Shown piece after piece: positions 5,325 through 56,802 of a DNA stretch of 64,000 nt. Under the pieces are notes generated by a model. The model did not search any database. It worked only from the letters and a program-made list of their open reading frames with translations, and was not told the DNA's origin. Both the position numbers and the translations under genes were made by a program. How positions within the stretch are numbered: the first letter of the stretch is position 1; each line of letters starts with the position of its first letter. This DNA comes from Pachysolen tannophilus NRRL Y-2460 (taxonomy: Eukaryota). The DNA lies in assembly GCA_001661245.1 (NCBI GenBank), contig KV454012.1:2034418-2098417 (forward strand). Reading direction: 5' to 3'.

Positions 5325-5939
5325 ATGTTTTCAGGTTCTTTTAGGTCTGAGAGTTCAAAATTGCAGTCACAAAATGCAATAAATAAGTTAATATCGAATT
5401 ATTTACCTGGTTCGGAACAGATTGCATCAAGTAATTCAAGTAAAAAATTAAATAAGATAAAACTTATAAAATCGGGTGCTCAGCTGATAAATAATAATCT
5501 GGTGAATCATAAATTTAATGAAAAGAATGAAGCTTTTAGAAGGAAATCACAGAAAAAGGAGAAATTAGTGAAAAGAAAGAAAGTTAAATCCATTTCAGAA
5601 GAAACTTTAAAATTAAACAGGGTAGCTAAAATAAATAAATTAAAATCAGAAAAAAATTATAAAGACAAAGAATTAGTAGAAGTATTAGACAAAAAAGTTG
5701 AAATTTTGAAATCATGGGAATTATCTAATGAAAATGAATTGAAGGCATTAGAGCTGGAAATATTATCTATAAAGCAAAAAGAACAAAATAAGAGAAAGAA
5801 GACAAGGGCTAGAAGACAAGAGAAAAGCGAGTTTAACGAAAAGGTGAAAAAGGGTATTATTTCTTATCCTGGATTGACTCCAGGGTTGGCACCAGTTGGG
5901 TTACTGGATGAAGATGAAGATGAGGAATCGGATTACTAG
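5325..5939 (+). CDS. RRT14: Regulator of rDNA transcription 14
   Basis: Lys-rich protein ending in the conserved YPGLTPGLAPVGLxDE-acidic motif. Convergent with MET18, as in S. cerevisiae (YIL127C/YIL128W). RRPE-like aaatttttca at about 5230. Confidence 0.88.
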   Translation: MFSGSFRSESSKLQSQNAINKLISNYLPGSEQIASSNSSKKLNKIKLIKSGAQLINNNLVNHKFNEKNEAFRRKSQKKEKLVKRKKVKSISEETLKLNRVAKINKLKSEKNYKDKELVEVLDKKVEILKSWELSNENELKALELEILSIKQKEQNKRKKTRARRQEKSEFNEKVKKGIISYPGLTPGLAPVGLLDEDEDEESDY

Positions 5940-6014: not shown

Positions 6015-9000
6015 TTAAGCCAAATCATAATAAATTTGTCTACAATCAGAGGCAATTTTTCTAACAATTCTCTTTCTATCATCCAACACAGGAATTAAAT
6101 TTCGAAGAATTCCACTTTTAAAATCTGCCAATGTGGCAGAGTCAACAACTTCTGGTAATTTCATTAAACATTGTAAACAATATACCTTGATATCACCATC
6201 ATTAGTGGAATTGATTAATTCTAAAAATCTTGGAACAAAACGTTTAATATTTTCAAGTATTAATTTTTTCGATGATGATTCATCTTTCAATGTAATCAAG
6301 ATAATCTTCAACGATGATTTGATGATTGTTTTGTCAGATTCTGAATTCGGTTCATAATATAATGAACTTACTAACAGAGGAAAAATTGTTGGTAAATGAG
6401 GTAAAATTATTGAATCATCATCAACGTATTTCAAAATTAATGACAATGTAGCGACATAATTTTTTTTCAAAATTGCAGATGGTGTTGAATTGAAACTTGC
6501 AATTAGTTTAGGGATTATATCATTGAAAAATTTTTGTTTGAATAATAAATTTATATTAATATTGAATATGATTTTTTTGTTTAGTCCAAAAGAATTTTTG
6601 ACAGATTTCTTATAAGCATTGAAAATTTCAGATTTAGAAACTAATACTTCAATTAATTTAGAAGAAACAGATGAGAACCTATTGAAATCTAATAACTTGA
6701 TTAAATACTCTCGGTAATTATCTGAAGATGAATCATTCTTCAAAATTAAAGCTTTTGTTATCCATGCCAAGACTTCCAAATTTTTCAAATCTTTATTACT
6801 CAACACAGCTGTGCTATTTAACTCAATTGGCTCAGTTAGTTCATTAAATAATAAACTTAAAAATTCATGTTCTTCATTTGTGTTAGCTAAATATTTATCG
6901 ATAACCAAACATAGATTCTGTAAGTATCCTAATCTCTCGTAATCTTCATGAATTATAACATCTAATTGACACATCTTAATCAAATCTCGGATATACTCAT
7001 GTATATCAACCGGTAATTTTGTTGTGGACTTATCAACGGCTGACAACAATTTTATAAATAAATTAACCAAGTTTGAAGGTTGTTCCAACAATTTAATTTG
7101 ATAATTTAATGGTCTTGTCAATAAAATCTCAGAAGACGACGAGTCTCCATATACAAAAATTTTAAATAGGCTATCAACTATTACTTGATGTTTTGAGGAA
7201 TTGGTATTGATTACGATCAATTTTGCGAGTTTGGATGAAACTTCAAGCAAACCGTAATTTTCTTTTGAATGGAAGATATCGTTCTGTAAAATTAAATACA
7301 AAAATTGAGGCAAAAACGTTTTTAAATAATTATCGATTTCTAATTGTTGATTATGATTTTCCATAGTTTTAGAAGTTTTAGTTAAAATCTCAATCATTGT
7401 TAATATTAAGTATTTAATATATTCTATGCTTGAGTTATTCGACAACAATGTATTCAATTTATGCAACAATCTAATCATCAAGACATCTAATATCTCTTTA
7501 TTTTCAACCATTGAAGATAAAATTTTCAAAAGGCTTTCCTTTGATTTAACAGTACTATGATTGTCAACTTTTAAAGATATTTCTCCTTCCTTTTGAATTT
7601 CATTAGAGTCACTATCGGGCAATAATGCCAATAATTGAGGAACAGTTATTTCCAATATTAACTTTGGCTCTATAGATGAGACTGAAACAATTTTTTCTAA
7701 TACTTCCTTAAACGTAGTAGGATTTGTGTCATCTATGAGAACTTCTGTAAAATATTGTACTATTAAGTTCAGTTCTTGGTAACTTAAAAAATCTTTCATT
7801 TTCACTAATTTAAATAAATTAGAAATGGCTAAACATCTCAACGTAACTTCATTCTTAGAGGATGACATTAAAGATTTACTTAGCAACATAAAGATATCAT
7901 CTTTGTGTTTCAATATTTCTAAATTGTTTGGAAACTGATGATTCTGAGATAGTTTAGTATATGAATAGAGAAAAAATGACAAATTAATAATTAAAGCTCT
8001 TTGCTTTGGTACACTGACTCCTTCTTTTATACAAAGAAGAATAATGGGGAAACTTTTTGCGACAGTTAAGTTAAATATTTTTATCGAAGTTGATGACATG
8101 CTTGCTAGTATTAAAGCCGATTGTTTAGAATATTTAGCATCAGGAGCAGTCAAATTCTTAATCAACTCGTCTATGATCAACTCTATTGTGACGTATTCTT
8201 CAATTCCATCGTCATTAGATGTTACTTTGACCGTTAGTTGCTCTATTAATTTTAAACTAAGCGGTATAATTTTATCTTCATCATTCGATGAGTTTTCATA
8301 ATTTTTAATTAAATCCTCATAACTTTGCAAATCTGATAATTCATTGTGTAAAATTTCAAATTTTATAGCATTCCATAAAGAAATAGAATATTCTTTAACA
8401 GTTTTCACATTATAATTTTGAATACATGCTATTAAATTATTTAAAGCGTCTGCTTTTACCAAAGGTGAAGATGAAGTCAACTTTTGAGTCAAATTTGGAA
8501 TTGAATCTTTAGCAAAAATCGAGTTGCAACTCAAGATTTTCCGCAATGCCGACTTTAATTCATCACTAGTTATCTTGTATGGATCATTTGGTGGAGGTTT
8601 AAATGATATTGGAAAATAACAAAAACTATTATCAAATAATTCTTCTGAATATTTGTTAATATCCAATGAAGTTGATATTTTATAATTTAATTCAAAAGAA
8701 ATTAATAAATTTCTGGGATCTTTCTCTGAGGTGGATACTTTAATGAATGTTTCAATAAATAAATTGTTTAAATTTGACAAAATAAAATTTTCAAACTTAT
8801 TAAATAAATTTAACAATATACCAAATGCAACATATCTTTGTTTTGCTAAAAGTTGTCTGGAATCATAGTTTTCTTTTAAAGTTGATAATAAATCTGCTAT
8901 CACTTCTGTTGATTTAAAATTATTCATTAATATTAAAGAAAGAATTCCAACAGAAGCCTCATTAAAATTATCAGATAACCTATTAATTAAAAACCCCATT

Positions 9001-13335: not shown

Positions 13336-13361
13336 AATGCAAAAAAAAGGAAAAAAAGAAG

Positions 13362-13435
13362 CGACAACGGCTGGAGTCGAACCAGCGATCTTGTGATTAA
13401 CAGTCACACGCCTTAACCAACTTGGCCACGAAGTC
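13362..13435 (-). tRNA. tRNA-Asn (GUU)
   Basis: Sequence GACTTCGTGGCCAAGTTGGTTAAGGCGTGTGACTGTTAATCACAAGATCGCTGGTTCGACTCCAGCCGTTGTCG has A and B boxes, anticodon loop CT-GTT-AA and a downstream T-run terminator. Confidence 0.93.
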
Positions 13436-15569: not shown

Positions 15570-16766
15570 TTATAATACATAAGTCAATCCAGGTAGAGCA
15601 ATTGTGAATATTAAACCTAAATTATTCATTTCATCAAGTCTTTGTAACTCTTTTAAAATTCTTTTCCTAGGATCTAATCCATCTTCACTTTCCTTTATAT
15701 GTGTAATAATTACATTTAACCCTTTTAAACATGAATTGTTATTATTATTACAAATATTATTATTATTTCCTTTTTTTTGTAAAAGTTTTTCCAAAACTAT
15801 ATCTCTTAAATTCAAAAATTCTGAAATAAGATGTAATGGAGACATATGTCCATATAATGGCTCATTGGAATTTGTTATAGGTAAATTAGAACATTCAATC
15901 ATTATTCCCGCTAAATTACCATTTATTATAAACTGGGAAATTTCATTCCATATGATATGATTTTTACCCAGATAATTATTTTGTTTACTTTCACTATCAG
16001 GTTCTACATCTCCAAATAATAAAAGATTTCTACCTGAATTTAAATGATTTATTAAATATGCACTGCTTTCATAAATTTTTCTTTCTCCCGTTATATTATC
16101 CAAATAAGATCCATGATTATTTTGGAAACATTTTATTCTATAAGTCTTGTTCAATGGGAACCATTCACCCTGTAATAATTCTTTTAATTCCAAAAAAGTT
16201 CCATCTTGTGTTATTAAATTTGGCCAAACTGCATCATTAAATATATTTTTTTTAATATTTGATAAAGTTACATTTGAACCATATACAATTTTAGAATGTA
16301 AAGCTGGAGAATTTATAATCAGTGCTGATAAATGATCAAAATGTGAATGAGTTATGAAAATATTTTTCAATAATTTTAAAATATTAATACTATATCCATA
16401 AGGTGAAATTTTTTCTTTCTCTTTCAGAGACCAATTAAACGGTATTAAAGTTTGACAATTTGTATATGCATCTACTGATAAAGAATCTGTATATAATTCT
16501 AATAAATAATTTTCACTCATAACTTTCTTATTCTTAATATTGTTGATTAAATCTGATAATGCTGATATTCCTGAGCCTGCATCAATACAAATAAATTGAT
16601 CTTTTAAATCTTTGTCAACAATCTCATTATATGTTAAAGTAGTATTTTTCAACAAATATGAACAATTCCTACCATCTAAAGGCCCTCCAGAACATCCTAA
16701 AACTGTCAATTCAAATTTTGAATCTTGATTCTGTAAATTATCTATAACAATAGGCTTTAATGACAT
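15570..16766 (-). CDS. PDE1: Low-affinity class II cAMP phosphodiesterase
   Basis: Motifs VLGCSGGP, ITHSHFDH (class II PDE signature), NDAVWPNL, FGDVEPD, IECS, LYGHMSP and ITHIK. Confidence 0.92.
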   Translation of the reverse strand: MSLKPIVIDNLQNQDSKFELTVLGCSGGPLDGRNCSYLLKNTTLTYNEIVDKDLKDQFICIDAGSGISALSDLINNIKNKKVMSENYLLELYTDSLSVDAYTNCQTLIPFNWSLKEKEKISPYGYSINILKLLKNIFITHSHFDHLSALIINSPALHSKIVYGSNVTLSNIKKNIFNDAVWPNLITQDGTFLELKELLQGEWFPLNKTYRIKCFQNNHGSYLDNITGERKIYESSAYLINHLNSGRNLLLFGDVEPDSESKQNNYLGKNHIIWNEISQFIINGNLAGIMIECSNLPITNSNEPLYGHMSPLHLISEFLNLRDIVLEKLLQKKGNNNNICNNNNNSCLKGLNVIITHIKESEDGLDPRKRILKELQRLDEMNNLGLIFTIALPGLTYVL

Positions 16767-19444: not shown

Positions 19445-19915
19445 TTAAACAGCAACTGCTGGTTGTTCTGGTTTTTGGAAGGCAGTATCCGAACCAGGAG
19501 CCAATACTTCTTGTGATGATTGTTGCAATTTCATTTCTTTTTCCATTTCAATCAACTGCTGTTCTGATAAAATTGATAAACTTAATGGAACTCCTAATAA
19601 TAACAGAGATGAAGTTAAAGCCCATAATAATGATCCAGTCTTACTAAGTAATAAACCTGTAGCAGATATAACACTCGAAGACAGAGAAGTAAACCTAAGT
19701 CTATGTTGTGGTGGAATAATCTCCTTCAACGCAACAACTCTATCATATATAGTTTCATTAGCCAAATCATCTTCATCATAATCATCTTCATCCGAATCTA
19801 ATTCAGATTCATTTTCAGATTCTTCTGCACCAGTACCTGTACTTTTATTTGCCTTTTCATCCTTACCAAAGAAATCCTTTGCTGTTTCATCATCAATTTG
19901 AGTTAATTTAACCAT
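19445..19915 (-). CDS. TOM22: Mitochondrial import receptor Tom22
   Basis: Starts MVKLTQI, followed by an acidic domain, ETIYDRVVALKEIIPP and the TM segment LLLGVPLSLSILSEQQLIEMEK. Confidence 0.96.
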   Translation of the reverse strand: MVKLTQIDDETAKDFFGKDEKANKSTGTGAEESENESELDSDEDDYDEDDLANETIYDRVVALKEIIPPQHRLRFTSLSSSVISATGLLLSKTGSLLWALTSSLLLLGVPLSLSILSEQQLIEMEKEMKLQQSSQEVLAPGSDTAFQKPEQPAVAV

Positions 19916-23479: not shown

Positions 23480-24592
23480 ATGTCAAAAGTTAAATTTGAT
23501 CCTAAAGTATTGCTTGATATAGCATGTTTCTTAGGAGCTAGTATATCTGTGTTTTATTTATTGAATCAATATATAAATGAATCAGCTTCGAGTCCTTTCC
23601 AAAATTTAAGAGACAAGAAAAAATTAAAAGAATCAATAAATAAATTTAAAAAAATTAATCCAAAATTTGATGATTCTAATTTATCAGAACATGAAAAATT
23701 AATATTATCAAATGTTATTACACCACTGGAGATTAGTGTTACATTTGCAGATATTGGTGGATTAGATCCAATAATTGATGAATTAAAAGAAAGTGTTTTA
23801 TTACCTTTAACACATCCTGAAATTTATAATCATTATTCAAATTTATTAAAAGCTCCAAAAGGTGTATTACTTCATGGACCTCCAGGTTGTGGTAAGACAA
23901 TGTTGGCTAAAGCGCTTGCTTGTGAAAGTGGTGCAAATTTCGTGGCGATAAAAATGTCATCAATTTTAGATAAATGGGTTGGTGAATCTAATAAATTAGT
24001 TGATGCAATTTTTTCATTACTGAATAAATTACAACCTTGTATTATTTTTATTGATGAAATTGATTCATTTTTAAGAGATAGAACTTCAAATGATCATGAA
24101 GTTACAGCAATGTTAAAAGCAGAATTCATGCAATTATGGGATGGTTTAAAACCAAATGGAAGAATAATGATATTAGGACTGACTAATAGACCAGATGATA
24201 TTGACACGGCTTTTATGAGAAGATTACCAAAAAGATTTCATATTGATTTACCTGATATAAAACAAAGATTAAAAATTTTAAGTGTTTTATTAAAAGATGT
24301 TGATTTAGATCAAGATTTAAAAATTTCAGATATTGCATTTAAAACAGATGGATTTAGTGGAAGTGATTTAAAAGAACTTTGTAGAAATGCTGCTTTTAAT
24401 GCAACAAGAGAATATATTAAAACTTGGAATTTAACTGAAAGGAGTAAGAATATTGATAATAATAATAATAATTTTGATGAAAATAATGAAAAAGTTGAAT
24501 TAAGACTGTTAAATTTAAAAGATTTTTTCAATGATAATTCTACAAGTGATGATATTGTATTTAAGAAAAATAATTTTAAAGATGGGTTGTAA
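23480..24592 (+). CDS. MSP1: Mitochondrial/peroxisomal outer-membrane AAA dislocase Msp1 (ATAD1)
   Basis: N-terminal TM anchor, Walker A GPPGCGKT, pore loop [11 protein letters not shown], Walker [21 protein letters not shown] and [10 protein letters not shown]. Confidence 0.95.
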
Positions 24593-25658: not shown

Positions 25659-26518
25659 ATGACTAGAGATCAAGTTGTTTTGATAGGGCTAAGTGGGGCA
25701 TCATCATCAGGTAAAACGGTATGTTTTTTTGTTTTTTGTTTTTTTATAGCTTAAAGTTTTTATGTGCTAACATTTTTTTGGTTTATTATTGTGGTGACGT
25801 TGTACAGACAGTTTCCAAGTACCTTCATAAGTTGATTGGAGAAAATTCAATTCTTGTACACCAAGATGATTTTTATCTTCCGAATGAACAAATTCCATGG
25901 AATGAATCTCATACAGAGCAAAATTGGGATTGTGCAGGTGCTATTGATTTTCCTAAATTTATAGAGACATTGGATAAAATGAAAACAGATTTTAATTATA
26001 AGTATCATGTGGATAGTTTAGAATTAGATGTTGATGATGCAGATTTTAAATTAAGTTCTGAAGAATTTTCTAGGTTGAAGCTGAGTGTTGAAAAAAAATT
26101 AAAGGAATGTTTTCTAAATAAGGGAAATTTTTTCAAAATTTATCTTATTGATGGGTTTTTACTTTACCATAATAGACAGGTGTTGGATAGATTTGATATT
26201 AGATTATTTTATAAAGCATCTTATTCAAATTTAAAAAAAAGGAGAAACCTGAGAGCAGGTTATAATACAGTAGGTGGTTTTTATAAAGATCCACCAAATT
26301 ATTTTGATGATTTTGTTTGGCCAGAATATTATCAAAATCATCGTTTCTTATTTCTGCCTAATCAAAACGAATTTGAAATAAAAGTAAATTCTGGTGATTT
26401 GAATGAGTATGCATTGGAATATTTGAAATTAAAACCTTTTAACAATGATGATGATAGCCATGGAAGTTTAGAAAAATTGCTACAAGAAACAATTGATTAT
26501 ATATTTGATAATATTTAA
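25659..26518 (+). CDS. NRK1: Nicotinamide riboside kinase, 256 aa, one intron
   Basis: Exon 1 25659-25718 (MTRDQVVLIGLSGASSSGKT, P-loop), intron 25719-25807 (GTATGT..TGCTAAC..CAG), exon 2 25808-26518 (HQDDFY, NWDC, IDGFLLY, DPPNYFDDFVWPEY). Confidence 0.93.
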
Positions 26519-30466: not shown

Positions 30467-32266
30467 TTAGTCAAAGAGACCAAAAATTCTATCGTTAGAT
30501 TTTCCGTCCAGATAACGGTTATCAACAATATTAACCAAGTAAAATTCATCGTGCAATTTACTTAATAACTCTCTAACTTCAGCATCTTCTTTACTGTCGC
30601 TATTATATAAACCTTGCCATTCATTGATAATCTTGAAAACTTCATCTTTCCAAGCTAAAAAGGAAATTTTTTCAACAATTGTTGGTTGTAATACTTCTGA
30701 TCCCGGGAAAACACCCCATGTAACTGCATTGATATCATCTTCTTTTGAGTTGGTGGATAATTCTCCTCTCGAGTTAACAGCGTAATATGTAAGACAGTTC
30801 CCTGTTTGAAACTCAGAGTTAATACTATCAATTTTCCTCAAGAGTTCTGGCAGTTTTGAAGCTGGACACAAGAATTCCAAATACATTTTTTGATAAACAT
30901 ATCCATTCTTTGGACCCCAACCATTAATTTTGTCAGATGAAGGTAAACCGTTAATACATGGTTGAGAATTAATAGAGTAATACCCTTTTTTGATAATATC
31001 AATCAACTCATTTACAATTGGGTTTGTTTCTGGCGAAATAGGATCATCAGACCATGGTAACGATTTTATTTCACCTTTTAAATACTTTATAAAAATATCA
31101 CTCAATTGTTCTTCCTTGGTAGGTCTACCCCACAATTCCAAAGTCTTTTTAGCAGAATGTCTGATTAACCCATTATGAAAAAGATCAACTTCCCCAAATG
31201 CAGGAGACCTTGAATCTCCCCATCTACCGTTAGGAAATTCATCCCAGTTGTTTGTTCTTTCAATATATGAAAATTTTCTATTTGCCCAGAAAATCGGCCT
31301 AACAGTTTCATTACTCCTTGTTGGATTCAAAGATTTTCTCCATGGAGTTAATTTATTACTATTAATATCCAAGTTTGGTTGTATCAAATTCAAATATTCC
31401 AAAACCATGATGGTCGATTTTTCTAAATTCATTGTATAGAAATGTAAATGATTAACGTATCCTGATTTCAATAATTTCAAACACATGTTGGAAACCAATT
31501 CACAACCTTTTAATCTAACTTTCAGGTCATCATCCTTAATCAATTCTAACTCTTTTAAAAAATTTTCAGGAACATTAATTTCACACCATTTAGCACGTCT
31601 CATAAAAGAGGCATAAGTGGCAATTGGCATAATACCAGGTATTATAGGTAAAGTGATGCCTTTAGCTCTAATTTTCTTGCACCATTCAATGAAAATATCA
31701 GCATTGTAGAACATTTGTGTCACAATGAAATCACCGCCACAATCTTGTTTTTCTTTCAAGAAATCAATCAACTTATCTGCATCTCCTTCTTCTGCGTGAC
31801 CTTCTGGGTAAGCTGCAACACCAATATTGAAATGATCACCGTATTTGGTCTTGATATATTTGATTAAATCTTTAGAATACTTAAAAGTACCGGTAGATTC
31901 AGATCCATCAATTGGTGGATCACCTCTAAGGGCCAAAATATTTTGACAACCACTATCGTATGCAGATTTTAGTGCGTTATCAATAACTTCTAATGACATA
32001 TTAGTACAAGTTAAATGCATACATGTTTCCAAACCCAAAACACTTTGAGAAGTGTTCACCATCTCAGTCGTTAAATTTGATAATACCCCACCTGCATTCC
32101 AAGTTATATCTATGAATTGGGGATTTAACTGATACATTCTATCCATTCTACTATACAAGTTTTGAACCCCTTGCGATGTTTTAGGAACAAAAAATTCAAA
32201 CGAAAAAGTAGCTGGCGGTGCATTTGAAACATCATGAGCCTTGTTTAATTTTTCTGTAATTTTCAT
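30467..32266 (-). CDS. MET13: Methylenetetrahydrofolate reductase
   Basis: Starts MKITEKL. Motifs SFEFFVPKTSQGVQNLY, NILALRGDPP, WDEFPNGRWGDSRSPAFG and NAVTWGVFPG. 599 aa. Confidence 0.94.
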   Translation of the reverse strand: MKITEKLNKAHDVSNAPPATFSFEFFVPKTSQGVQNLYSRMDRMYQLNPQFIDITWNAGGVLSNLTTEMVNTSQSVLGLETCMHLTCTNMSLEVIDNALKSAYDSGCQNILALRGDPPIDGSESTGTFKYSKDLIKYIKTKYGDHFNIGVAAYPEGHAEEGDADKLIDFLKEKQDCGGDFIVTQMFYNADIFIEWCKKIRAKGITLPIIPGIMPIATYASFMRRAKWCEINVPENFLKELELIKDDDLKVRLKGCELVSNMCLKLLKSGYVNHLHFYTMNLEKSTIMVLEYLNLIQPNLDINSNKLTPWRKSLNPTRSNETVRPIFWANRKFSYIERTNNWDEFPNGRWGDSRSPAFGEVDLFHNGLIRHSAKKTLELWGRPTKEEQLSDIFIKYLKGEIKSLPWSDDPISPETNPIVNELIDIIKKGYYSINSQPCINGLPSSDKINGWGPKNGYVYQKMYLEFLCPASKLPELLRKIDSINSEFQTGNCLTYYAVNSRGELSTNSKEDDINAVTWGVFPGSEVLQPTIVEKISFLAWKDEVFKIINEWQGLYNSDSKEDAEVRELLSKLHDEFYLVNIVDNRYLDGKSNDRIFGLFD

Positions 32267-36288: not shown

Positions 36289-38268
36289 ATGATTTTAGTG
36301 GATGGTGAAAAATATGCGTGTGTTCAATGTATAAGAGGACATAGATCGTCAACTTGTCAACATACCAAAAGGCCTTTGGTACAGGTGAGGTCTAGAGGGA
36401 GACCTATATCAGACTGTAATCATAGGGTCACGGTCTTTGCTGATCAACTGGAAGAGTCTCAAAGGAAGACGGAAAAACTTGATACAAATAATAGGAATTC
36501 TGGGGTACAGGGATATCAGAAACAGAATGGTATGGATTCTGGTAATAGTAATATTGGTGGATGTTGTCTGAAATTATCTTTACCTGTTCAAAAGATGGAT
36601 CTGAAAGATGAGTTGAAAGATGAGTTGATACAAGTGAAGCAAGAACAAAGTGAAACTGGATGTTGTTCCAATCAAGAGGGCGATAAGAAACTGGATTTTT
36701 GTTCTAGTAAATCATCTTCAAAAGATCCAACGGTTATAGTTCTTCGGGCTTCTAAAAGAGAACTTTATGAAGTTTCAAAAGGATCTTTGAACTTATTAGG
36801 TCCAGTAAATTCTGGAAATAGACATAGTCAAGGCTCTAAACAAAATTCAGATGGAAGTGTTCACAAAGTTAGACATGGTCCAAGATGTAGCTGTTGCGTT
36901 AAAAGTAAAATTGATTTTTCAGCATCGCTAAATACATTGAAATTTTATAATTCCAAAGGCTCTTCATTGAATGGAGGCTCTGTTAAACTGACTACAAATT
37001 CAACTGACCCTAATTTTTCCAATGTTTACAATAATTCAGAAGAATTAAGTATTCATGACAATAAGACTAATAATATCAATAATATTAATGATCATAATAA
37101 AAATGATAATTTTAACGAAAGCAATAATAACAGACACAAGGATAATATAAGTGAGATTAATGGGAAAGGTCCTCTGAAGTTAGATAATGATTGGCCATCT
37201 ATACAGAACCAGCAGGGTCAAACTCAATTAACTTTCCCAACGGTACCAAATGCTAAGACTTATGATTTATATTATGCAAACTACTGTACGCTTCCAGGAA
37301 CTTGTTTTTGCGGTGATGACTGTTCTTGTGAAAATTGTCTGGTTCATAGTAAGGACAATAACAAAAATAATACCCATATGGTTAGTAACAATAATAACAA
37401 TAATAACAATTATAACAATTATGACAATAATAACAATAATTATAACAACAATAATAGTGGCATTACGAGTCAAGAGAGAAATCAAGATATGATGAATTCT
37501 TCATCTTTTTTACAATTAGCAGGACAAGTTCAAATGCAACCCCTTTTCGATAATGATTTCAATAATCTGACTGCATTTCAACACCAGATACCTCAACATC
37601 AACGACAACAACATCACCGAGATGAACTATTTCTGGTGAATCTGGTGAATCGAGACCTGCAACAATCCATACAGTTTCTGCAACATCACCAACCACCACT
37701 CCAATTTCACACTTCAAATTTTTACCCCGTTTCTCAACCAGCTTCCCAGCAACAATACTTTCCGAGCCAAACACAGAACGAATTTAATAACATTCCTACC
37801 GTTTCTGCGGTTCCAAATAACACCAATTCTTACTCAATAAACTCTAAACAGGAATTGCAATTTCAACAAATGACCGATTGTATTTGTGCACCAGAAGAAT
37901 GTAGATGCTATAACTGTGAAAAACATGGAATTGTAAACGGTGTTCGAGTTTCAGATGGAATTAAAATTGTTTCCTCACCGTCTACAAATGATGGAAGTAG
38001 TTATGAAAACTCACCAGTATCTGAAGAAATATTACAACGGCAACAAAGGCAGCAGCAATTGAACATGATGAGCAATGTGTTTTTCAATAATTTGCCAATC
38101 GAAGAAGTGTATGAAATGATGGATGACTGCAGTTGCCCAGCTGACAGTTGTAGTTGTCCTAATTGCTTCAAGCATGGAATTATCAACAATGAAGTTGTCA
38201 ATTTTAATATGCCTCCTTTGCAGTACCTTAACTCGAGATCTAACAGAAATGCTAATTCAGATACTTAA
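36289..38268 (+). CDS. MAC1: Copper-sensing transcription factor Mac1 (copper fist)
   Basis: N-terminal copper fist KYACVQCIRGHRSSTCQHTKRPLVQVRSRGRP and CxC-x4/5-CxCxxCxxH repeats. Convergent with FMS1, as YMR021C/YMR020W are in S. cerevisiae. Confidence 0.88.
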   Translation: MILVDGEKYACVQCIRGHRSSTCQHTKRPLVQVRSRGRPISDCNHRVTVFADQLEESQRKTEKLDTNNRNSGVQGYQKQNGMDSGNSNIGGCCLKLSLPVQKMDLKDELKDELIQVKQEQSETGCCSNQEGDKKLDFCSSKSSSKDPTVIVLRASKRELYEVSKGSLNLLGPVNSGNRHSQGSKQNSDGSVHKVRHGPRCSCCVKSKIDFSASLNTLKFYNSKGSSLNGGSVKLTTNSTDPNFSNVYNNSEELSIHDNKTNNINNINDHNKNDNFNESNNNRHKDNISEINGKGPLKLDNDWPSIQNQQGQTQLTFPTVPNAKTYDLYYANYCTLPGTCFCGDDCSCENCLVHSKDNNKNNTHMVSNNNNNNNNYNNYDNNNNNYNNNNSGITSQERNQDMMNSSSFLQLAGQVQMQPLFDNDFNNLTAFQHQIPQHQRQQHHRDELFLVNLVNRDLQQSIQFLQHHQPPLQFHTSNFYPVSQPASQQQYFPSQTQNEFNNIPTVSAVPNNTNSYSINSKQELQFQQMTDCICAPEECRCYNCEKHGIVNGVRVSDGIKIVSSPSTNDGSSYENSPVSEEILQRQQRQQQLNMMSNVFFNNLPIEEVYEMMDDCSCPADSCSCPNCFKHGIINNEVVNFNMPPLQYLNSRSNRNANSDT

Positions 38269-43336: not shown

Positions 43337-46300
43337 TCAATTTAAATAACCTTTACAGCCCGGTGCCCCACATAAGCAAGGAATACGCTCATCATTATTC
43401 GTTTCTCTTTCAAATTTATAATCATAAGTTAATTCCTCGTTTGCTCCAACGTCCCTAAGAGCATAAATGACAATTCTCTTTTTACCTTCAACTTTAATAA
43501 TCTTAGCGGTACAACTTGGTACACAACAGTGGTTAATAAATCTAGCTATTCCACCTTTCTTGGTGGCATCAATAACTGTGTTTTCATCAATTCTAAATAA
43601 ATAAGAAGATCCAATACCTGATTTTAAATATTTTTTTTCTCTAACTTCAGCAACCAGCTGTCTAATACACTCACCAACGTACTCAATGATCATTTCACCG
43701 GCAGCAATCGGTTCAAGAGCATATAAACCCCAATTGTGGATTGCAGATCTGGCAAATGAAACAGGTTTCTTACGTTTCGTCAACTGATTAAGATCTAATA
43801 TATCAGTTTCACTTCCCAACATTTGCTTTTGAGCACTGATATCAGCTGCAAGTCTTCTGTTATTTGCTCTGTTAACACGAGAACTTTGAATATTGTTACT
43901 GTTATTATTGCTGCTTCCGCTATTACCATTAGCAGAGTTTTCTTCTTCGGCGTGTTCAATTGTATTCAACGGTTGGTTGACTTTACGCCTATGTGGTAAA
44001 TACGCAGATTTAATTGAATCCTGGATTTTTTTATACCCTTCACTTCTTGCAGATCCTGTAGTGTTTTCTAATGAAATATCCAACTGCTGAAATCCATCTT
44101 CCATACTGTTTTTATTGAATTTGTTGGTAGACTTAAATTTATCTCTAATTGCTTTAATATCCTTTTGCTTCCAACACCAATAATCTAAGTTTTTAATTGA
44201 TGTCGTTGCTTTAATGTCACTAAAAATTTCCTTAATCAATTCGTAGTCTTCTTCATCCTTTATGACTTTCTGCACGCCATCTAAGTCAAACAATATGTTT
44301 TCATCAAGTCTGTCATCATAGACAGACTTCGGAGTACCAGTAGAAGGACGATATAACTCACTGATCAAAGAGTAATCTTCCTTCTTTTCGGTATCAATAT
44401 CCATCTTAATCTCATCCTTGGCATCCTTATCTTCTTCCGGACTAGTTGGTTCTGAAACTGTATCACGTCCAATAGCTTCTTCCTTAAGGCTGCTATTTTC
44501 GGTTTCCTTTTCATCGTCATCTGAGAGTTCTTTCAAATTCTTACCTTTTTTCTTTGATAATTTAACATTACCTTCTAAAGTTAATTTCTTTTTCTTTAAA
44601 TCATCCTGTTCTTCCTCCTCTTGCTCTTGTTCTTCATCTTCATCTTCATCAGATTCGGATTCCAAAACTGGAGTCCCTTCAAGTTCTGATGATTTACGCT
44701 CTTCTTCCTCATCGGAATAATAATTTAAAGCATGACCCATAGGAAATAAATCAAACTTCTTCTTTCTTGATAGTTTAACTCCACTTGCATCACCAGTTTT
44801 TCTTTTAATCTTGTATCTACCGCTAGTACTATTCTTTATTGAAGAAACCGATTTTTTAATCTTTGGTAAGACAGGGCCCACTCTATTCTCATTTCCAATT
44901 GAGAAAATATCATTAACACCCAGATCAGTAATATTCATATTATTATCATCTTTAAGTGCTTGTTGTTTTTCGAGCAGTTCTTGCTCTTTTTTCAGTTTCT
45001 CCTTTTCTTTATAATCTGAAACAATATCAGGGAAATTATCAGGGTTTATTAAGTCCAAAATTGTTGGCCCAATAATTTTTTCTCTTACATCTTTCTGTAG
45101 CATATTTTTCAATTCATTGAAAAACATTACACTCGATTCTGTAGCTAATTCTTGTGGATTCATTACATCAACCCAATCAGTGGATACGACTAAGTCCATG
45201 TATAATCTATATTTGCGATCAAACCTGGCACTGTACTCTGCATCGAAACACTTCTTTGTATCTCTTAACGAATTGAAAACAATCAAAAATCCAATTTCAT
45301 CTACCAAAACTCTTCTATACTTATATCTATCCAAAAAAGATTTAAGTGCGTGAACTGGTACTTCCTTAGGAGGAAGATATCTTTTCGATATGAATAAAAA
45401 AGGTCTTCCCTTGACAAACTGTTCCAAAGATTTCGGAATTGAAAAATCTTCTAAAGCTTTAATGTGGTTTGAATGTTTAGAGTTTATTAGTATTCTATGG
45501 TTTCGTAAAACCTCATTAACCAGGGTATCCACTGATTTTGAATTCGATAGTGATGCGTTTCTAAGTGACAGAGACAATGTCAGTGACAGTGAGAGTGACA
45601 GCGACAGAGACTGAGACAGAGATAAAGACTGTTGCTTCAATTCCAAATGGAAATTGGATCTAGATTTATCTGATGAATCGTTTGATTTCTTTACAGCCAA
45701 TGATTGCTGGTGGGCTCTTGGGCCTTTTGGTAATGATAATTTTAAATCTTTAAGTTTTTCTTCTTTTTGCAATTCTCTTTCTTTTCTTTTTTGCAGCTCA
45801 ATTTTATTTAAAATTGCATCCATTCTTTCCTTTAAAAAACTATTATCAGCACCATTCAAACCAGATCTTATAGTGACACCATTTATTTTCATCTTTTTAT
45901 CGGTATCACGAACAACTTTCTGAGCCAATTTCAGGGATAAATCAATAGGTCCATCAAATACAACTTTATATAATCCTATTGGTGCTGCATTTAACGGATT
46001 CACAATCATTTCTGAAACTTTAATATCACCAAATCCTTTAAAATGATTTCGAAGTAAATTTTCCAGAGTTGATGTTGGGAACCCCCATACAATAACTTCT
46101 GTTGCAGGTGGAGGTCCCAAAGAGTTCTTATCATAAACAAATTGTGTTGGTAGTAATGATTTGAAAAGAGTCTTATTTGATCTTTTACCATTTTTTTCAT
46201 AAAAAGGATATTTTTTAACATCTTTTCTTGGATCTCTTAAAGGAAGCTTTATACCTTCACCAGATCTTATTCTTATGATTGATCCTTTTGATTTATCTTT

Positions 46301-46810
46301 CGATATTTCTGGATCATAGGTAACTTTGAAAGGTTTTTTAATAACTTTTAATGAGGGGGATATATTCATCAATTTGGATTCATGATGATTTTGTATTTCA
46401 AAAATCCCATCTTGATAATCAACTGTTTCTATTAAATCATCACTACCTCCGTTAAGATTTGAAGATATACTTGTATTAGTGGAAGCAGGTGTTAAAATCT
46501 GAGATACCGCTGATGAACTTTGTTGTATATGTTTGTCCAGATTTGGTATCGAACGAAACCCATTATGATAACCGTTATTGTATCGATGATCTCCACCACC
46601 TTCAGAGTTATAGTTTTGTCCCCTCGATGGTTTATATGGTGACGATGACCTATACCGACTTTGTTTATTTGATTGACTTGCTGGTCCCAATGGTATCACT
46701 GGCTTTGAAGAAGAAGAAGAAGAAGAACTCGATGATGATGCAGGAAAATGTGAATGATGATGCGATAATCTCTTCTGTGACCTATACTTATCAGGGAAAA
46801 ATTTATTCAT
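43337..46810 (-). CDS. SET1: Histone H3K4 methyltransferase Set1
   Basis: RRM region, n-[13 protein letters not shown] domain [29 protein letters not shown], and post-[16 protein letters not shown]. Confidence 0.97.
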
Positions 46811-47354
46811 GCTATCTGATGAGGCTGAAGCTGGACTTGATCCAGAAGTTTTTTTTTTTTTTTTTGTATTTTGGTTTTGTATTGGGAATTTTGAATAATA
46901 ATATATTCTTGATTCGTAAAAAGAAGCTCATATCTTCTTTTTTTTTTTTTTTTTTTGTCTTTTTGGTTATTTCATTGGCGGTATGTCTTACAGAGGTGTT
47001 TCAAGACAAAATGATGAAAAAAAAAAAAAAAACAACAAACCTAATATACACAAATCAAATGCCCAAAAGTTTATTGACAAGATTTTTATTACCACAAGTT
47101 TTAACGTGAACTTCTTGTATTAAAGCTTTTTATTAATTTATGTTATTTTCCCATTATTTATTATTTAATTGTTTTACAACAATACACAAGAGTTTGAGTT
47201 TTGATATTTAACGAACTACATTTGTTTTATAAGGTGTAATTTAAAAAGATATTGATGAGAGGATGAATAAATTGTAATAAATAAGAATAAATAAATAAAT
47301 AAATAAATAAGAGTAAAGTAAAAGATAATATCAGTTAATAACCTATGTTGTTGG

Positions 47355-48097: not shown

Positions 48098-49111
48098 ATG
48101 GGTTCAAAGTTAATCATCCAGGCGTTGGATGATATTATTCCGTTATATGATAAAGATGAGTATCCTACAAAGTTGGTTAAATATATTGAACGTTTATACA
48201 ATTTATCATCATCCAAGATTACTTTAAAACAAGAAGAAGAAATATCAAGGTATCATTTATGTTCTATATTAGCTATTGAGAAATTTAATGGAACTCAAGA
48301 TGAAGTATTACCTGATCCATTAATTGATAAAATTCCTTTAGCACCAAATAAAGTTAATAAATTATTGGAACAATTTAAATTTGAAATTTTTACAGGATCT
48401 AGATCTAATACACCACAATTTATGACAACACCTTCAAGACGTTCATCAAGATTAAATTCTTTACAAAATACACCTACAAGACTGAATAATATAAATAGCT
48501 CCAAGATTAATCATGAGAAAAAATTGGTTAATAGTGAAAAGATTCCATTAAAAAATGTTTCACCTTTTATTACTTCAACCTCAACTTCAACTACACCTAC
48601 TAGAACTATATTAAAAGACCAATCTTCACCATATTTACTTTCACCTTCAAAATCAAAAAATTTATCAACAGCACAGGTGATTTCATTTTGTAATAAGTTC
48701 CATATAACACGCGATATAACAACAAATATTTTGAAAAGTTTTAAAAATTTACATAATAGAATTAAAAATGAATGGGCTCTTCTTTGTGGAATAGTAGGTA
48801 CAGTTTATTTAAGAATAAATGAAAAACAATTAGATGCTAAAATAGGTTTAAGACAAAGATTTATAGATAAATTACATTTATTACAAAATGGTGGATTATT
48901 GAAAAAACAAATGCAACATTGGATCAATTTAATTGAAAATCTTATTAAAAATGAAAAATGGATTAAAATGTTGGAAATTGAATACAACTACAGCAAAAAT
49001 GGGATCCTTCAAACTGAACAGTACACCATAGGTAACATGATAATTTCAGAGGTAAAATTTAGTTCCCAGAAAAAACTACAATATCTCGACTGGAAACTGA
49101 ACCTTTGTTAG
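48098..49111 (+). CDS. ORC6: Origin recognition complex subunit 6
   Basis: LKQEEEISRYHLC..A.EK, KIPLAP, a TP/SP CDK-site-rich linker and C-terminal Y..WK. Divergent from SET1, as YHR118C is. First ATG is at 48098. Confidence 0.85.
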   Translation: MGSKLIIQALDDIIPLYDKDEYPTKLVKYIERLYNLSSSKITLKQEEEISRYHLCSILAIEKFNGTQDEVLPDPLIDKIPLAPNKVNKLLEQFKFEIFTGSRSNTPQFMTTPSRRSSRLNSLQNTPTRLNNINSSKINHEKKLVNSEKIPLKNVSPFITSTSTSTTPTRTILKDQSSPYLLSPSKSKNLSTAQVISFCNKFHITRDITTNILKSFKNLHNRIKNEWALLCGIVGTVYLRINEKQLDAKIGLRQRFIDKLHLLQNGGLLKKQMQHWINLIENLIKNEKWIKMLEIEYNYSKNGILQTEQYTIGNMIISEVKFSSQKKLQYLDWKLNLC

Positions 49112-49651: not shown

Positions 49652-52600
49652 ATGGATAATATTTCTTCGGCAAAGAGAAGAAGCTCTAGATCAGGGTATT
49701 CATCACCGGATAAGAAGTATCATAAATCAAATGGGAATAGTGAGGGGAATCTTAAGATAAATGGAAATACAAGTGATGTTGAAATGGGTACTAATGATAG
49801 TGGATCAGAAGTAGAAGAAGAAGTAGGAGAAAGATTTGTTCCAGAAATCAATGGTTGTTCTTCTTTAATTCCTGTATTGTCTGATTCAAGCTCATCAAAT
49901 GATCGTACTTGGCAAAGAACAATTGAAAATGTTGTTAAATCAGTGGTGTCAATACATTTTGCTCAAACTGCAAATTTTGATTCGGATCCAGCAGTTGTAA
50001 GTGAGGCTACTGGATTTGTAGTTGATTCAAAGTTGGGGATAATCATGACAAATAGACATGTTGTTGGTGTGGGGCCATTCTGGGGGTATGCAGTTTTTGA
50101 TAATCATGAAGAATGTGATGTTACTCCAATCTATCGTGATCCTGTTCATGATTTTGGGTTTTTAAAATTTTCTCCAAGTGCTATAAAATATATGCAAATT
50201 GAACCTTTAAAATTAAGACCTGATTTAGCAAAAGTTGGTTGTGAAATTAGAGTTGTTGGTAATGATGCTGGTGAAAAATTATCTATATTATCTGGTTTTA
50301 TATCAAGATTGGATAGAAATGCACCAGAGTATGGTGGACTCACATATAATGATTTTAATACAGAATACATCCAAGCAGCAGCAAGTGCCTCGGGTGGTTC
50401 TTCAGGATCGCCAGTTGTAGACATTGATGGTAATGCTGTGGCTTTACAAGCTGGTGGTAGTACTGAATCATCAACAGATTTCTTTTTACCTGTATACAGA
50501 GCATTAAGAGCTTTAAAATGTATACAAAATAATGAAAAAATAGTTCGTGGAACTATTCAAGTACAATGGCTTTTAAGACCATTTGATGAATGTCGAAGAT
50601 TGGGATTACGTCCAGATACAGAATCTCAAATGAGAAAATCATTTCCAAATATAATTGGATTATTAGTGGCAGAAGTTGTTTTACCTGAAGGTCCTTCTGA
50701 TGGATTGATTAAAGAAGGTGACACTTTAATTTCAATTAATGGTATTAATATTTCAACTTTTATTACCGTTGATGAAATCTTAGATGATTCGGTGGGTAAA
50801 CCAGTTAAATTATTATTACAAAGAGGTGGGAAAGATTTATCTATTGAAATTGAAGTTGGAGATTTACACAAGATTACACCAAATAGATACCTTGATGTAT
50901 GTGGTGCTTCTTTTAACGATATGAGTTATCAAATGGCAAGAATTTATGCTATTCCAGTAAAAGGTGTATTTGTTAATAACGCATCTGGATCTTTCTTTTT
51001 TGATAACTCTGAAAAATTTGGTTGGATCTTGGATTCAATCGATGATAATGATACACCAGATCTAGATACTTTTATTGAAGTTATGAAGAAAATCCCTGAT
51101 GAAAGTAGAGTTCCTGTTGTTTTCAGACATATTACAGATTTACATTGCCCTCATGTTTCATCTGTTTTAATTGATCGCCATTGGCATACAACTTTTAGAT
51201 TAGCTGTAAGAAATGATTCTACAGGTTTATGGGATTTCCAAGATTTACAAGAAAAGCCTCTTCCACCAGTTGAGTTGAAACCACAAAGTGCTAAAATTGC
51301 TGATATCCCAACAGAAATTACCGGATGTGCGCATTTATCAAGAAGTTTTGTCTTGATTCATACTATATTACCTGTACCATTAGATGCCTTTCCTGAAGAA
51401 CGTAAAAGAGGATATGGTTTGATTATTGATGCTCAACACGGATATGTGGTTGTTTCAAGATATATCGTTCCTCATGACCTTTTGGATGTCTATATAACTG
51501 TCGCTGAATCAATAATTGTCCTGGGGAAAGTTGTATTTTTACATCCAACTCAAAATTATGCAGTTGTCAAATATGATCCTTCTTTAATTATAGCACCATT
51601 AGAAACTCCTAAATTTAGTGAAATTCCATTACATATTGGTGATAAATGTACATTTGTTGGTTATAATTATAATTTGAGAGTTGTTACTCAAGAAACTAAA
51701 ATTACTGATATTGCATCGTTAAACGTTCCTGTATCATCGATGCAACCACGTTATAGAGGAACCAATTTAGAAAGCATTCAAATAGATACTTCATTAGCTT
51801 CTCATTGTCATTCAGGAGTATTAGCTGATGCCAATGGTACTATCAGAGCTTTATGGCTTTCATTTTTAGGTGATAGAAACTCAGATACTGATAACGTTTA
51901 TAAGATGGGATTAGATATTACTGAGCTTAATTCGATTATCAAAAGTTTCCAAAATGCGGTTGAAACTCCTAATTTGAGAATTATAGAAGCCGAGTTTTAT
52001 TCTTTACCAATAACTCAGGCTAGAATCAGAAAAGTACCAGATGAATGGATATCTAAATTAGAAGAGAATGCAGATGATATTGATAGGTTACAATTCTTGG
52101 GAGTTTCAAGAGTTACTGTTCCTTTACCAGGACATGAAAAAGTTTCACTTTTACCTGGTGATATCGTACTTTCTATTGACGATAAGCCTGTAAGTAGAAC
52201 TAAAGATGTCGATGTAATGTATAATAAGGAAGAATTAAATTTTAAAATAGTTCGGAAAAAACAAGTGATGGATATAAAAGTTAAAACTGTTTCAGCTAAT
52301 CTTTTAAACACTTCCCAATTATTAATATGGTCAGGAGCATTATTACAACTGCCACATCATGGTGTAAGACAGTTGATGAAAAATTTACCCTCAAGTATTT
52401 ATGTTACGAGCAGGGCTGAAGGTTCACCTGCAAGACATTATGGTATTGGTTCAACTAATTTCATAACTCATGCAAATGAGATTCCTACTCCTGATTTAAA
52501 TTCTTTCTTGGAAGTTATTAAAAAAATCCCAGATAATACATATTGTAAATTAAGATTAGTTACATATGATAACATTCCTTTTGCAATCACTTTAAAGACC

Positions 52601-54246: not shown

Positions 54247-55124
54247 TAAGAATAGTGAAATTTACAAAAATTGGTAGTATTAATTATGTTTTAAAATTTA
54301 ATTTAAATTCACTAATAAAATAATAAAATAAACATTTTTTTTTTAGTTATAAAAATAATTTTAATTTTTTATTTTTATTTTTTTAAAGATAAAGAGTGAA
54401 CATTATTATTATGTCTTGATCTTAACAATACACATCAATTATTGTAATGAATTATTTTCTTGATTTAAGATGATCAAAATATTATCAATTTATTAATAAC
54501 ATCTCAATACAGTTTCTAGGCTTACTATAGAGGTTTCCCAACAAGTCTTAAGATTCTTTAGCCTTAGCCTTAGCATTTAGTTTAAGTTTAAGATTTATTT
54601 ACTTATATTATAATTACGTAACTTTTTTTAAATAAAATACTTTTAAACAAATAATCATAGCCTATTTTGATTAACAACTATTAATCAAAATTTTCTTTTT
54701 CTTTTTTTTACATTTTACTTCAATACTAAATGATTCTAGTCCCTTTTTCTTCTTATTCTTTTAAACTTTTAATTATGTTTAGTTGGGCTATTTTAAAGAA
54801 ATGATTTTATTTATTTTACATCAAGTAACTTATTATGGTAAACTTGTTCTGAAAAAAAAAAAAAAACATAAAAAAATATGATATTTTAAGCGAATATGCA
54901 AGTTATAACTGCGAACGAATGTTCGAGAAATATTCTGAAAATAATTAACCAGCCTTCCGTATCCGATATCATCAAATGAGTACACAAACACACGACTATT
55001 TTAAATATAATATTTAATTAGAAAAAAATAAAAAAAAAAAGGTCATTCAAATTTAATTACGTAAAAAAAATAAAAAAAATAAAAAAAAATCTTATTCCTA
55101 TGCAGTCCCTTTTTTTTTTTTTTT

Positions 55125-55587
55125 NNNNNNNNNNNNNNNNNNNNNNNNNNNNNNNNNNNNNNNNNNNNNNNNNNNNNNNNNNNNNNNNNNNNNNNNNNNN
55201 NNNNNNNNNNNNNNNNNNNNNNNNNNNNNNNNNNNNNNNNNNNNNNNNNNNNNNNNNNNNNNNNNNNNNNNNNNNNNNNNNNNNNNNNNNNNNNNNNNNN
55301 NNNNNNNNNNNNNNNNNNNNNNNNNNNNNNNNNNNNNNNNNNNNNNNNNNNNNNNNNNNNNNNNNNNNNNNNNNNNNNNNNNNNNNNNNNNNNNNNNNNN
55401 NNNNNNNNNNNNNNNNNNNNNNNNNNNNNNNNNNNNNNNNNNNNNNNNNNNNNNNNNNNNNNNNNNNNNNNNNNNNNNNNNNNNNNNNNNNNNNNNNNNN
55501 NNNNNNNNNNNNNNNNNNNNNNNNNNNNNNNNNNNNNNNNNNNNNNNNNNNNNNNNNNNNNNNNNNNNNNNNNNNNNNNNNNNNNNN
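55125..55587. other. Assembly gap (N run) with poly-T tracts on both sides
   Basis: Run of N characters. Confidence 1.
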
Positions 55588-56802
55588 TTGGTCTTACCTT
55601 GCCTTCTTTTTTTTTTTTTTTTTTTTTTTTAACCGCCAACCCACGAGGGGCAGCGCCGTACCACAGGTAAAATTATTCCACAGGTAAAATTATTACAACG
55701 TGGATAACTAAAATTTAAAGAGTTTATGATTTCAAATTTACAAGATCAAAAATAGTATTTTGTTGTATTTTATACCAGGCTTTCTCGTTGGATATACTTC
55801 TTATTGTCGCACGGGTCTTTCTAATGCCTTTTTTTCTAATTGAAACCTACTCTCATTAATAATCATTAATATAGGCTCCTAAACCTCGTGGAGAAAACAT
55901 TACATTTATCTTAATTTATTATTAATGTATTATGTATGATCTGAGCAAAAAAAAAAAAAAAAATCCTACAATAATACAGTTTGTTGTTGTTGTGGTAGTA
56001 GTAGTGGTCTAGAAGAAGATTTCAATATATCGGACGAAAACAAATAAAAAATTAAAACAATTATGACTCCATACTTTTTTTTTTTTTTTTTACACACACT
56101 CACTACATCGGACTTAAAAAAGAATGATACCATAAATTTACATAATTTTACAATCGATCGATCGATACATCCATCCATCACAACAAGAGGGAAAAATAGC
56201 AACCCTAGCATAATTAATTACTGTGACTCAAACAGCAAAAAAGAAGAAAAAATTTTTCTTAATTTTCTTAATTTTTTAAAACACACGTAATTTTTACACA
56301 CTTTAAACGCGAGAAAAAAAATAAAAAAAAATTTTTTTTCTCTCTTTTTCTTTCTTTATCTTTTCCATCTATTAATTTTAATGCTCATTTCGGTATTAAG
56401 CAGCCCTCACATTGTATTTTTATATATTATTAGGTAAACAAAAGATTTTAAAAATTTTCTATGCACGTGTAATTTTCTAATACCGAAAAAATGAGTAATT
56501 CAGAATCAGAACTTTTTGTATATTTAAAATATATAAACCTAACTTTATTCCAATTCAAATTATCATTTTATAATTTATATATTATTCATTAAAATATTTT
56601 GAATATAAGATATTTGTTATTTTTTATTTTCATAAATAAATAAAATAAAAACCAAGAAAAAGAAAAATCAAAGAGAACTCTTTCATTTCATATATCATAG
56701 AGTTTATATATATATATATATTGAAAATTAATTACTGAAAAAAAAAAAAATTTTTTTTAAAATTAAAATTATTTGGAAATAAGTTTATTTTAAAATTTCA
56801 AG

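Follow-up and report, generated by a model that had tools for sequence, protein, structure and literature searches.

Conserved protein columns and an alanine-type tRNA support the known reading of CTG as alanine in nuclear DNA of Pachysolen tannophilus

Introduction

The closest described system to the DNA studied here is the nuclear genetic code of the yeast Pachysolen tannophilus, in which CUG is read as alanine (translation table 26). This reassignment was published in 2016 and was rightly treated as established by the sequence-only reading that preceded this analysis. It is now the diagnostic character of an order, the Alaninales, for which the same paper also gives a protein family of its own, OG0016373 (PMC11182611). 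Two mass spectrometry datasets from P. tannophilus support it. One found alanine at 97.2% of 907 supported positions and described CUG as being as unambiguous as AUG (PMC4937558), and the other, in its Supplementary Table 1, lists alanine at 243 of 256 CUG sites, with leucine at three, glutamine and asparagine at two each, and serine at none (PMC5951914). The Pachysolen genome is reported to contain 16,824 CUG codons, with 80% of genes affected, and it is established that alanyl-tRNA synthetase (AlaRS) recognises the G3:U70 pair and A73 while ignoring the anticodon (PMC4937558). The origin of the change is debated. In one proposal the leucine tRNA was lost first (PMC4937558), and in the other its loss followed a phase of ambiguous decoding in which selection acted against it (PMC5951914); nothing in the present data decides between these orders of loss.

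Two other genera of the Alaninales, Nakazawaea and Peterozyma, have the same reassignment and the same kind of tRNA (PMC11182611, PMC6041473). CUG codons are far more numerous in Nakazawaea peltata (53,966; PMC6041473) than in Pachysolen. The N. peltata and Pachysolen tRNAs are reported to share just the alanine consensus bases (PMC6041473), whereas a figure legend in PMC5951914 describes synteny of the tRNA locus drawn for four species. More distant parallels are the CUG-Ser1 code (Candida, table 12) and the CUG-Ser2 code (Ascoidea, Saccharomycopsis), which, like the system here, involve an anticodon-shifted tRNA and a synthetase that ignores the anticodon. These codes use serine tRNAs with a long variable arm, which we did not find here. 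CUG-Ser2 species also often retain a leucine tRNA-CAG (PMC5951914), and this too was not found here.

We analysed a window of 64,000 nucleotides of yeast DNA, together with the genome from which it was taken, and compared it with these systems. The DNA is P. tannophilus by database label, the species in which table 26 was described (PMC4937558; PMC5951914). Its tRNA-CAG matches the published description (G3:U70, A73, 5' GGGC, G37 and no extended variable loop; PMC4937558), and it has the same neighbour gene as the published tA-CAG locus (PMC5951914). The spread of aligned residues at CTG is also the same as in the published BLAST table. We found no difference from the described system, with the tRNA compared by its described features rather than base for base.

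Results

The window, AT-rich DNA of a budding yeast, contains 31 open reading frames (ORFs) of at least 100 aa, and 26 of the 28 ORFs scanned had a Pfam match. CTG makes up 88 of the 14,628 codons (~0.6%) in 29 of these ORFs, a total that includes a run of N. Two off-frame ORFs (46513-47109 and 62514-63188) did not enter the codon counts, owing to their overlap with Set1 and a RanBP1-domain gene. A further listed ORF, at 55100-55687, is mostly a run of N marking an assembly gap and represents no gene. CTG is clustered in two low-complexity stretches, with six codons in a Ser-rich repeat of Set1 (45571-45619) and five or six in a Gln-rich part of a copper-fist factor (37567-37678); repeat expansion in such stretches inflates CTG counts. 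The sole tRNA inside the window is an ordinary tRNA-Asn(GTT) at 13361-13435 on the reverse strand. We note that the gene names Nrk1, Nma111, Pde1, Kre33 and Tra1, and the organisms assigned to PDB chains, are partly our own assumption, with Pfam and PDB molecule names backing the gene names.

Database matches agree with the species label. Tra1 from the same genome matched a P. tannophilus record best (95% identity, against 70% for the next match), as did the dynein heavy chain (99%, next 47%). On sequence grounds, the DNA is best placed in the order Alaninales, with Pachysolen, Nakazawaea and Peterozyma. The P. tannophilus Tra1 and dynein records have alanine at 32 of 33 CTG sites, with the remaining site misaligned, and the self record of Msp1 (P0002) has alanine at all four of its sites, but alanine in a database translation is the annotator's choice and not independent evidence.

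The sequence-only reading had named nine CTG codons, all of which proved to be in frame at the coordinates given, and four of these lie in the gene for the AAA ATPase Msp1 (23480..24592, forward strand). This gene encodes 370 aa with PF00004 and PF17862 domains, its matches are named Msp1, and the four sites are its only in-frame CTG codons. We aligned its product to 119 homologues with CTG masked as X and the self record left out. Residue 234 (24179..24181), in the motif ILG-x-TNRP, falls in an invariant alanine column (119 of 119), and residue 181 (24020..24022), in FSL-x-NKLQP, falls in a column with alanine in 112 of 119 homologues, glycine in three, and leucine and serine in two each. Both sites behave as had been expected from the usual forms GATNRP and FSLANKLQP. 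The two leucines in column 181 belong to the two closest relatives, P0003 and P0004, which are probably Ala-clade yeasts with the same CTG, mistranslated by the standard code in the database.

For the other two Msp1 codons, the expectation that leucine would be atypical held, but neither is specific for alanine. Residue 83 (23726..23728; TP-x-EI) lies in a variable polar column (D 39, E 38, S 12, A 4 and L 1 of 119), and residue 343 (24506..24508; R-x-LN) lies in a proline column (P 105, S 7 and A 5 of 119). The proline codon CCG is one base from CTG. Judged by these columns, residues 181 and 234 argue for alanine, and residues 83 and 343 argue solely against leucine.

CTG sites in other genes of the window were more mixed. 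Residue 104 of Tom22 (19604..19606, reverse strand), in the transmembrane segment TSS-x-LLLGVP, had been read as alanine, and alanine is present in the four alignments shown, which all represent one yeast protein; Tom22 residue 78 aligns with phenylalanine. Two sites that had been offered as independent support for alanine did not provide it. Residue 177 of a nicotinamide riboside kinase-like (Nrk1-like) protein (26249..26251, forward) is opposite threonine in a weak structure match (E 7e-6), and residue 900 of Nma111 (52349..52351, forward) lies in an arginine column (R 33, C 4, A 1 and L 1 of 44 aligned loci). The arginine codon CGG is one base from CTG. Residue 624 of Nma111 lies in an Asp/Glu column, and residue 334 of Orc6 (49097..49099, forward) is outside the aligned stretch. 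Residue 194 of Rrt14 (5904..5906, forward) aligns with serine, as had been reported. Among the nine named sites, alanine-specific evidence thus comes from Msp1 181, Msp1 234 and Tom22 104 only.

Additional sites included counter-examples. Residues 54 and 59 of Rrt14 (5484..5501, forward) both align with leucine, as does residue 149 of Pde1 (16320..16322, reverse), which adjoins a His motif. Rrt14 residue 144 aligns with glutamine, and residue 1052 in the SET domain of Set1 (43655..43657, reverse; IRQ-x-VAE) aligns with proline in all three alignments shown. In MTHFR, residue 248 (31523..31525, reverse) is opposite alanine in one structure sequence and valine in two near-identical ones, and residue 472 is opposite alanine in one structure sequence and tyrosine in another. 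Sites compared pairwise (Tom22, Rrt14, Nrk1, Pde1, Set1 and MTHFR) did not enter the pooled count below. Two further observations concern these genes. The Nrk1-like ORF (25721-26518) opens with a doubtful low-complexity stretch and shows no clear beginning to its kinase domain, and it likely has an intron or another start codon. For 23 other ORFs of the window, no homologue turned up in the flanks of the 73 Nma111 loci.

To tabulate aligned residues at CTG columns across orthologs, as the earlier reading had suggested, we pooled Msp1, Nma111 and Kre33 with Tra1 and the dynein heavy chain, which were added from the same genome; TOR and Mec1 did not enter the pool. Self records and the four closest relatives were left out, and columns were required to have at least 30 residues and at most 20% gaps, a filter passed by 9,917 of 10,563 codon columns and 35 of 43 CTG columns. 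The method assigned all 60 of the other (control) codons correctly. For CTG, the pooled log-likelihood was -9.5 for alanine, -16.6 for serine and -27.4 for leucine over the 35 columns, and alanine won 1415 of 2000 bootstraps, serine 359 and leucine 102. All 20 residues had log-likelihoods below zero, so none beats background. An earlier pooled run with three proteins gave the same residue order. Most of the 16 CTG sites in Tra1 are in variable regions, and all four in Kre33/Nat10 are in poorly conserved stretches and are uninformative.

Comparison with other codons separated CTG from both leucine and serine. Leucine was the most frequent residue at 6 of the 35 CTG columns, compared with 866 of 1187 columns for the other five leucine codons (Fisher p 2e-11); for the rare codons CTA and CTC the count was 82 of 114 (p 9e-9). 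Dynein 2546 and Tra1 2439 are examples of CTG in a leucine column. Serine was commonest at one CTG column, compared with 346 of 812 for serine codons (p 2e-7). CTG is also atypical as an alanine codon, with alanine commonest at 5 of 35 columns compared with 295 of 516 for GCN (p 6e-7), and leucine was commonest more often at CTG than at GCN (5 of 516; p 2e-5). Median column conservation was 0.47 for CTG, 0.79 for GCN and 0.91 for leucine codons, and only two CTG columns reach 90% conservation, each of them an alanine column. The proposed tabulation, then, gave a clear outcome in one respect and a weak one in the other: by these alignments, CTG columns behave neither as leucine nor as serine codons, both of which are rejected, and alanine ranks first only weakly.

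The mixed composition of CTG columns is consistent with mutational history. Two base changes separate CTG from any GCN codon, and one separates it from codons for leucine (TTG, CTN), proline (CCG), glutamine (CAG), methionine (ATG), valine (GTG) and arginine (CGG). Most CTG codons would be either old leucine codons whose meaning changed or newcomers that arose, at tolerant positions, by a single mutation in a codon for one of these six residues. With CTG two steps from GCN and most CTG codons of other origin, a minority of CTG would be expected in alanine columns. The six neighbour residues were commonest at 16 of the 30 non-alanine CTG columns, compared with 53 of 221 for GCN (p 0.002), while the comparison with all columns (37%) was borderline (p 0.055).

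The published genome-wide BLAST table shows a similar distribution. Its CTG row places alanine first (30%), followed by leucine (16%), proline (10%) and glutamine (7%), and leucine reaches 15.8% for CTG compared with 0.9% for GCA. Our arithmetic on this table assigns 58% of the non-alanine weight at CTG to the six neighbours, compared with ~28% for GCA/GCG, although arginine is not raised at CTG (0.9%). In the same table, 554 of 20,511 CTG codons were alignable (2.7%), compared with 11% of CTA, and CUG is described as under-used in conserved regions (PMC5951914, Suppl. Fig. 14 legend). We found no discussion of the neighbour-residue pattern in the literature, within a search of partial texts too thin to call it unpublished.

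A tRNA-CAG with the alanine identity pair G3:U70, which the earlier reading had proposed to look for, was found outside the window at G000:C6:217831-217902 (reverse strand), by searching with a CAG anticodon-loop pattern. The gene is 72 nt long and single copy in the genome, and it scored 57.6 bits against Rfam RF00005. It starts with G1-G2-G3-C4 (5' GGGC), has G3:U70, A73 and G37, and its variable loop is 4 nt, without a long variable arm. Among 17 tRNAs compared, it was closest to the genome's tRNA-Ala(AGC) (73%) and tRNA-Ala(UGC) (70%), with which it has its first 12 bases in common, and the other 15 ranged from 49% to 65% (Leu-UAA 58%, Ser tRNAs 52%). This similarity suggests that tRNA-CAG derives from tRNA-Ala. 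A gene with the motif 'vlphppls' lies ~860 bases away, and this motif names a neighbour at the tA-CAG locus in the legend of Suppl. Fig. 5d of PMC5951914. ARAGORN labelled the tRNA Leu, by anticodon alone. In folding energy it does not stand out (z -0.59). The T stem contains an A:C mismatch, and the anticodon stem is all-U/A-rich, unlike those of its tRNA-Ala relatives.

Searches differed in their ability to recover this gene. The CAG anticodon pattern showed no enrichment over its control (23 and 19 matches), and just one of the 20 loci kept was a tRNA-CAG. A first 5' tRNA pattern gave 18 matches, none of them CAG among those read. A DNA search with tRNA-Ala(UGC) as the query missed tRNA-CAG, as did a genome tRNA search with Rfam, which scored 63 of 1003 candidates. 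For competing tRNAs, a Leu/Ser-type pattern gave 21 matches at 18 places (control, 0), all of which were read, and none of these 18 genes has anticodon CAG. This census comprised leucine tRNAs UAA (4), CAA (2), AAG (1) and UAG (1) and serine tRNAs AGA (3), UGA (3), CGA (1) and GCU (3). The set thus holds tRNA-Leu(AAG) and tRNA-Leu(UAG), the latter intron-bearing (G000:C8:422116-422249), for the other CUN codons. A looser pattern gave one match, within the Nma111 ORF. The census used exact patterns, which could miss a divergent tRNA gene, and is to that extent incomplete.

The mitochondrial contig (G000:C10) has 28,450 bases and 20% GC and holds respiratory genes. Twelve mitochondrial genes contain 21 CTT, three CTA and no CTG codons. 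In a stretch of Cox1, CTT is opposite leucine at six of six sites in both the best and the second structure match, and the 14 ATA codons of Cob align with isoleucine (10), valine (3) and methionine (1) in the best match. The CTG change is thus confined to the nucleus, and the mitochondrial code fits table 4, not table 3. Section 9 of PMC9154068 gives table 3 for the P. tannophilus mitochondrion, which looks mis-stated, although the supplementary tables of that paper may bear on the point.

Several other features of this genome deserve mention. The only mitochondrial tRNA for CUN that we found has anticodon AAG (G000:C10:25987-26059, L120:5987-6059; 73 nt) and combines a Leu-type D arm with the lack of a long variable arm; our literature search gave no match for it. 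Three mitochondrial tRNAs have anticodon CAT (G000:C10, L118 and L120), and one of them may be an isoleucine tRNA that reads AUA. The nad5 gene (L120:6349-8276) has a frame shift near 7050-7060, where its front and rear halves do not share a frame and leave no space for an intron; this is probably an assembly error. In the nuclear genome, a gene for a FAT-domain kinase (probably Mec1 or Tel1) is split into two overlapping long frames of 1842 and 524 codons (G000:C4:215487 region, L117), through a frameshift, an intron or an assembly error.

Discussion

We consider it very probable (about 0.97) that the window is nuclear P. tannophilus DNA under table 26, in which a tRNA-CAG of tRNA-Ala type carries alanine and reads CUG. 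In the proposed mechanism, tRNA-CAG would consist of an alanine tRNA body with a CAG anticodon. Because AlaRS recognises G3:U70 and A73 in the acceptor stem and ignores the anticodon, such an anticodon-shifted tRNA-Ala would be charged with alanine and would capture CUG, and the searches revealed no Leu- or Ser-type tRNA-CAG as a competitor. Each nuclear CTG in frame would then be read as alanine. The codons, alanine columns, tRNA with its identity elements, neighbour gene and species label come from this analysis, and the charging and peptide data come from papers on the species. Sequencing error as a source of the CTG sites was rejected, as CTG recurs in alanine columns and a matching tRNA is present.

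The alternative that survives best, though we consider it improbable, is mixed decoding, in which CUG is mostly alanine with a minor leucine fraction, either through wobble by tRNA-Leu(UAG) or through mischarging of tRNA-CAG by LeuRS (A35, G37). The excess of leucine columns at CTG over GCN, here and over GCA in the published table, would fit this reading, as would the presence of tRNA-Leu(UAG), the G37 of tRNA-CAG and the fact that leucine is the largest non-alanine count in the peptides of PMC5951914. Set against these points, proline and glutamine show a similar excess, which mutation explains and no decoding route does. Three leucine sites are at noise level next to two each for glutamine and asparagine in the same supplementary table, CUG is as unambiguous as AUG in PMC4937558, and tRNA-CAG lacks the long variable arm of leucine tRNAs. 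A bolder version is that CTG codons in leucine columns are kept because leucine is inserted at a real rate in some conditions. This yeast would then be the second eukaryote in which a sense codon is partly statistical, here between alanine and leucine. Such decoding is compatible with the leucine-column excess and with the presence of a tRNA-Leu(UAG) gene, but the published proteomics, obtained in rich medium, speaks against it, and we give it very little weight.

Uniform decoding as either of the two other residues can be set aside. The Candida-type code of table 12 is matched by the serine opposite Rrt14 194 and by the second rank of serine in the pooled likelihood and bootstraps, but it is contradicted by the single serine CTG column, and refuted by the anatomy of a tRNA without a long variable arm and only 52% like serine tRNAs, and by the absence of serine among the 256 peptide sites of PMC5951914. 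The standard code, with CTG as leucine and the alanine-column sites as chance substitutions, has on its side the six leucine columns, the three leucine counter-examples in Rrt14 and Pde1 and the intron-containing tRNA-Leu(UAG), but it would put leucine into the invariant alanine column of Msp1, it is at odds with the column counts for other leucine codons including the rare ones and with the alanine identity of the sole CAG tRNA found, and published proteomics had already refuted it (three leucines in 256 sites; PMC5951914).

Returning to alanine as the meaning of CTG, the change described here is real and was interpreted correctly, but it had been both published and annotated before. The advice that each CTG 'L' in the ORF track be read as A is borne out by the alanine columns, by tRNA-CAG and by the published peptides. 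ORF tracks made with the standard code insert false leucines into motifs, such as GATNRP in Msp1, and CTG needs recoding when genes are moved between P. tannophilus and other yeasts. Because CTG also sits on leucine, proline, glutamine and arginine columns, its meaning is poorly tested by alignment alone, and the mutational-neighbour pattern means that code calls made from alignments only are weak for CTG. We lean towards a further interpretation of the same pattern, in which alanine-coding CTG would be an island codon that opens one-step substitutions from leucine, glutamine, methionine or arginine to alanine that the standard code lacks. This is a tamer point than statistical decoding of CUG as alanine and leucine, and a likelier one. 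Very few sense codons have changed meaning in the nuclei of eukaryotes, and CUG as alanine is among these cases.
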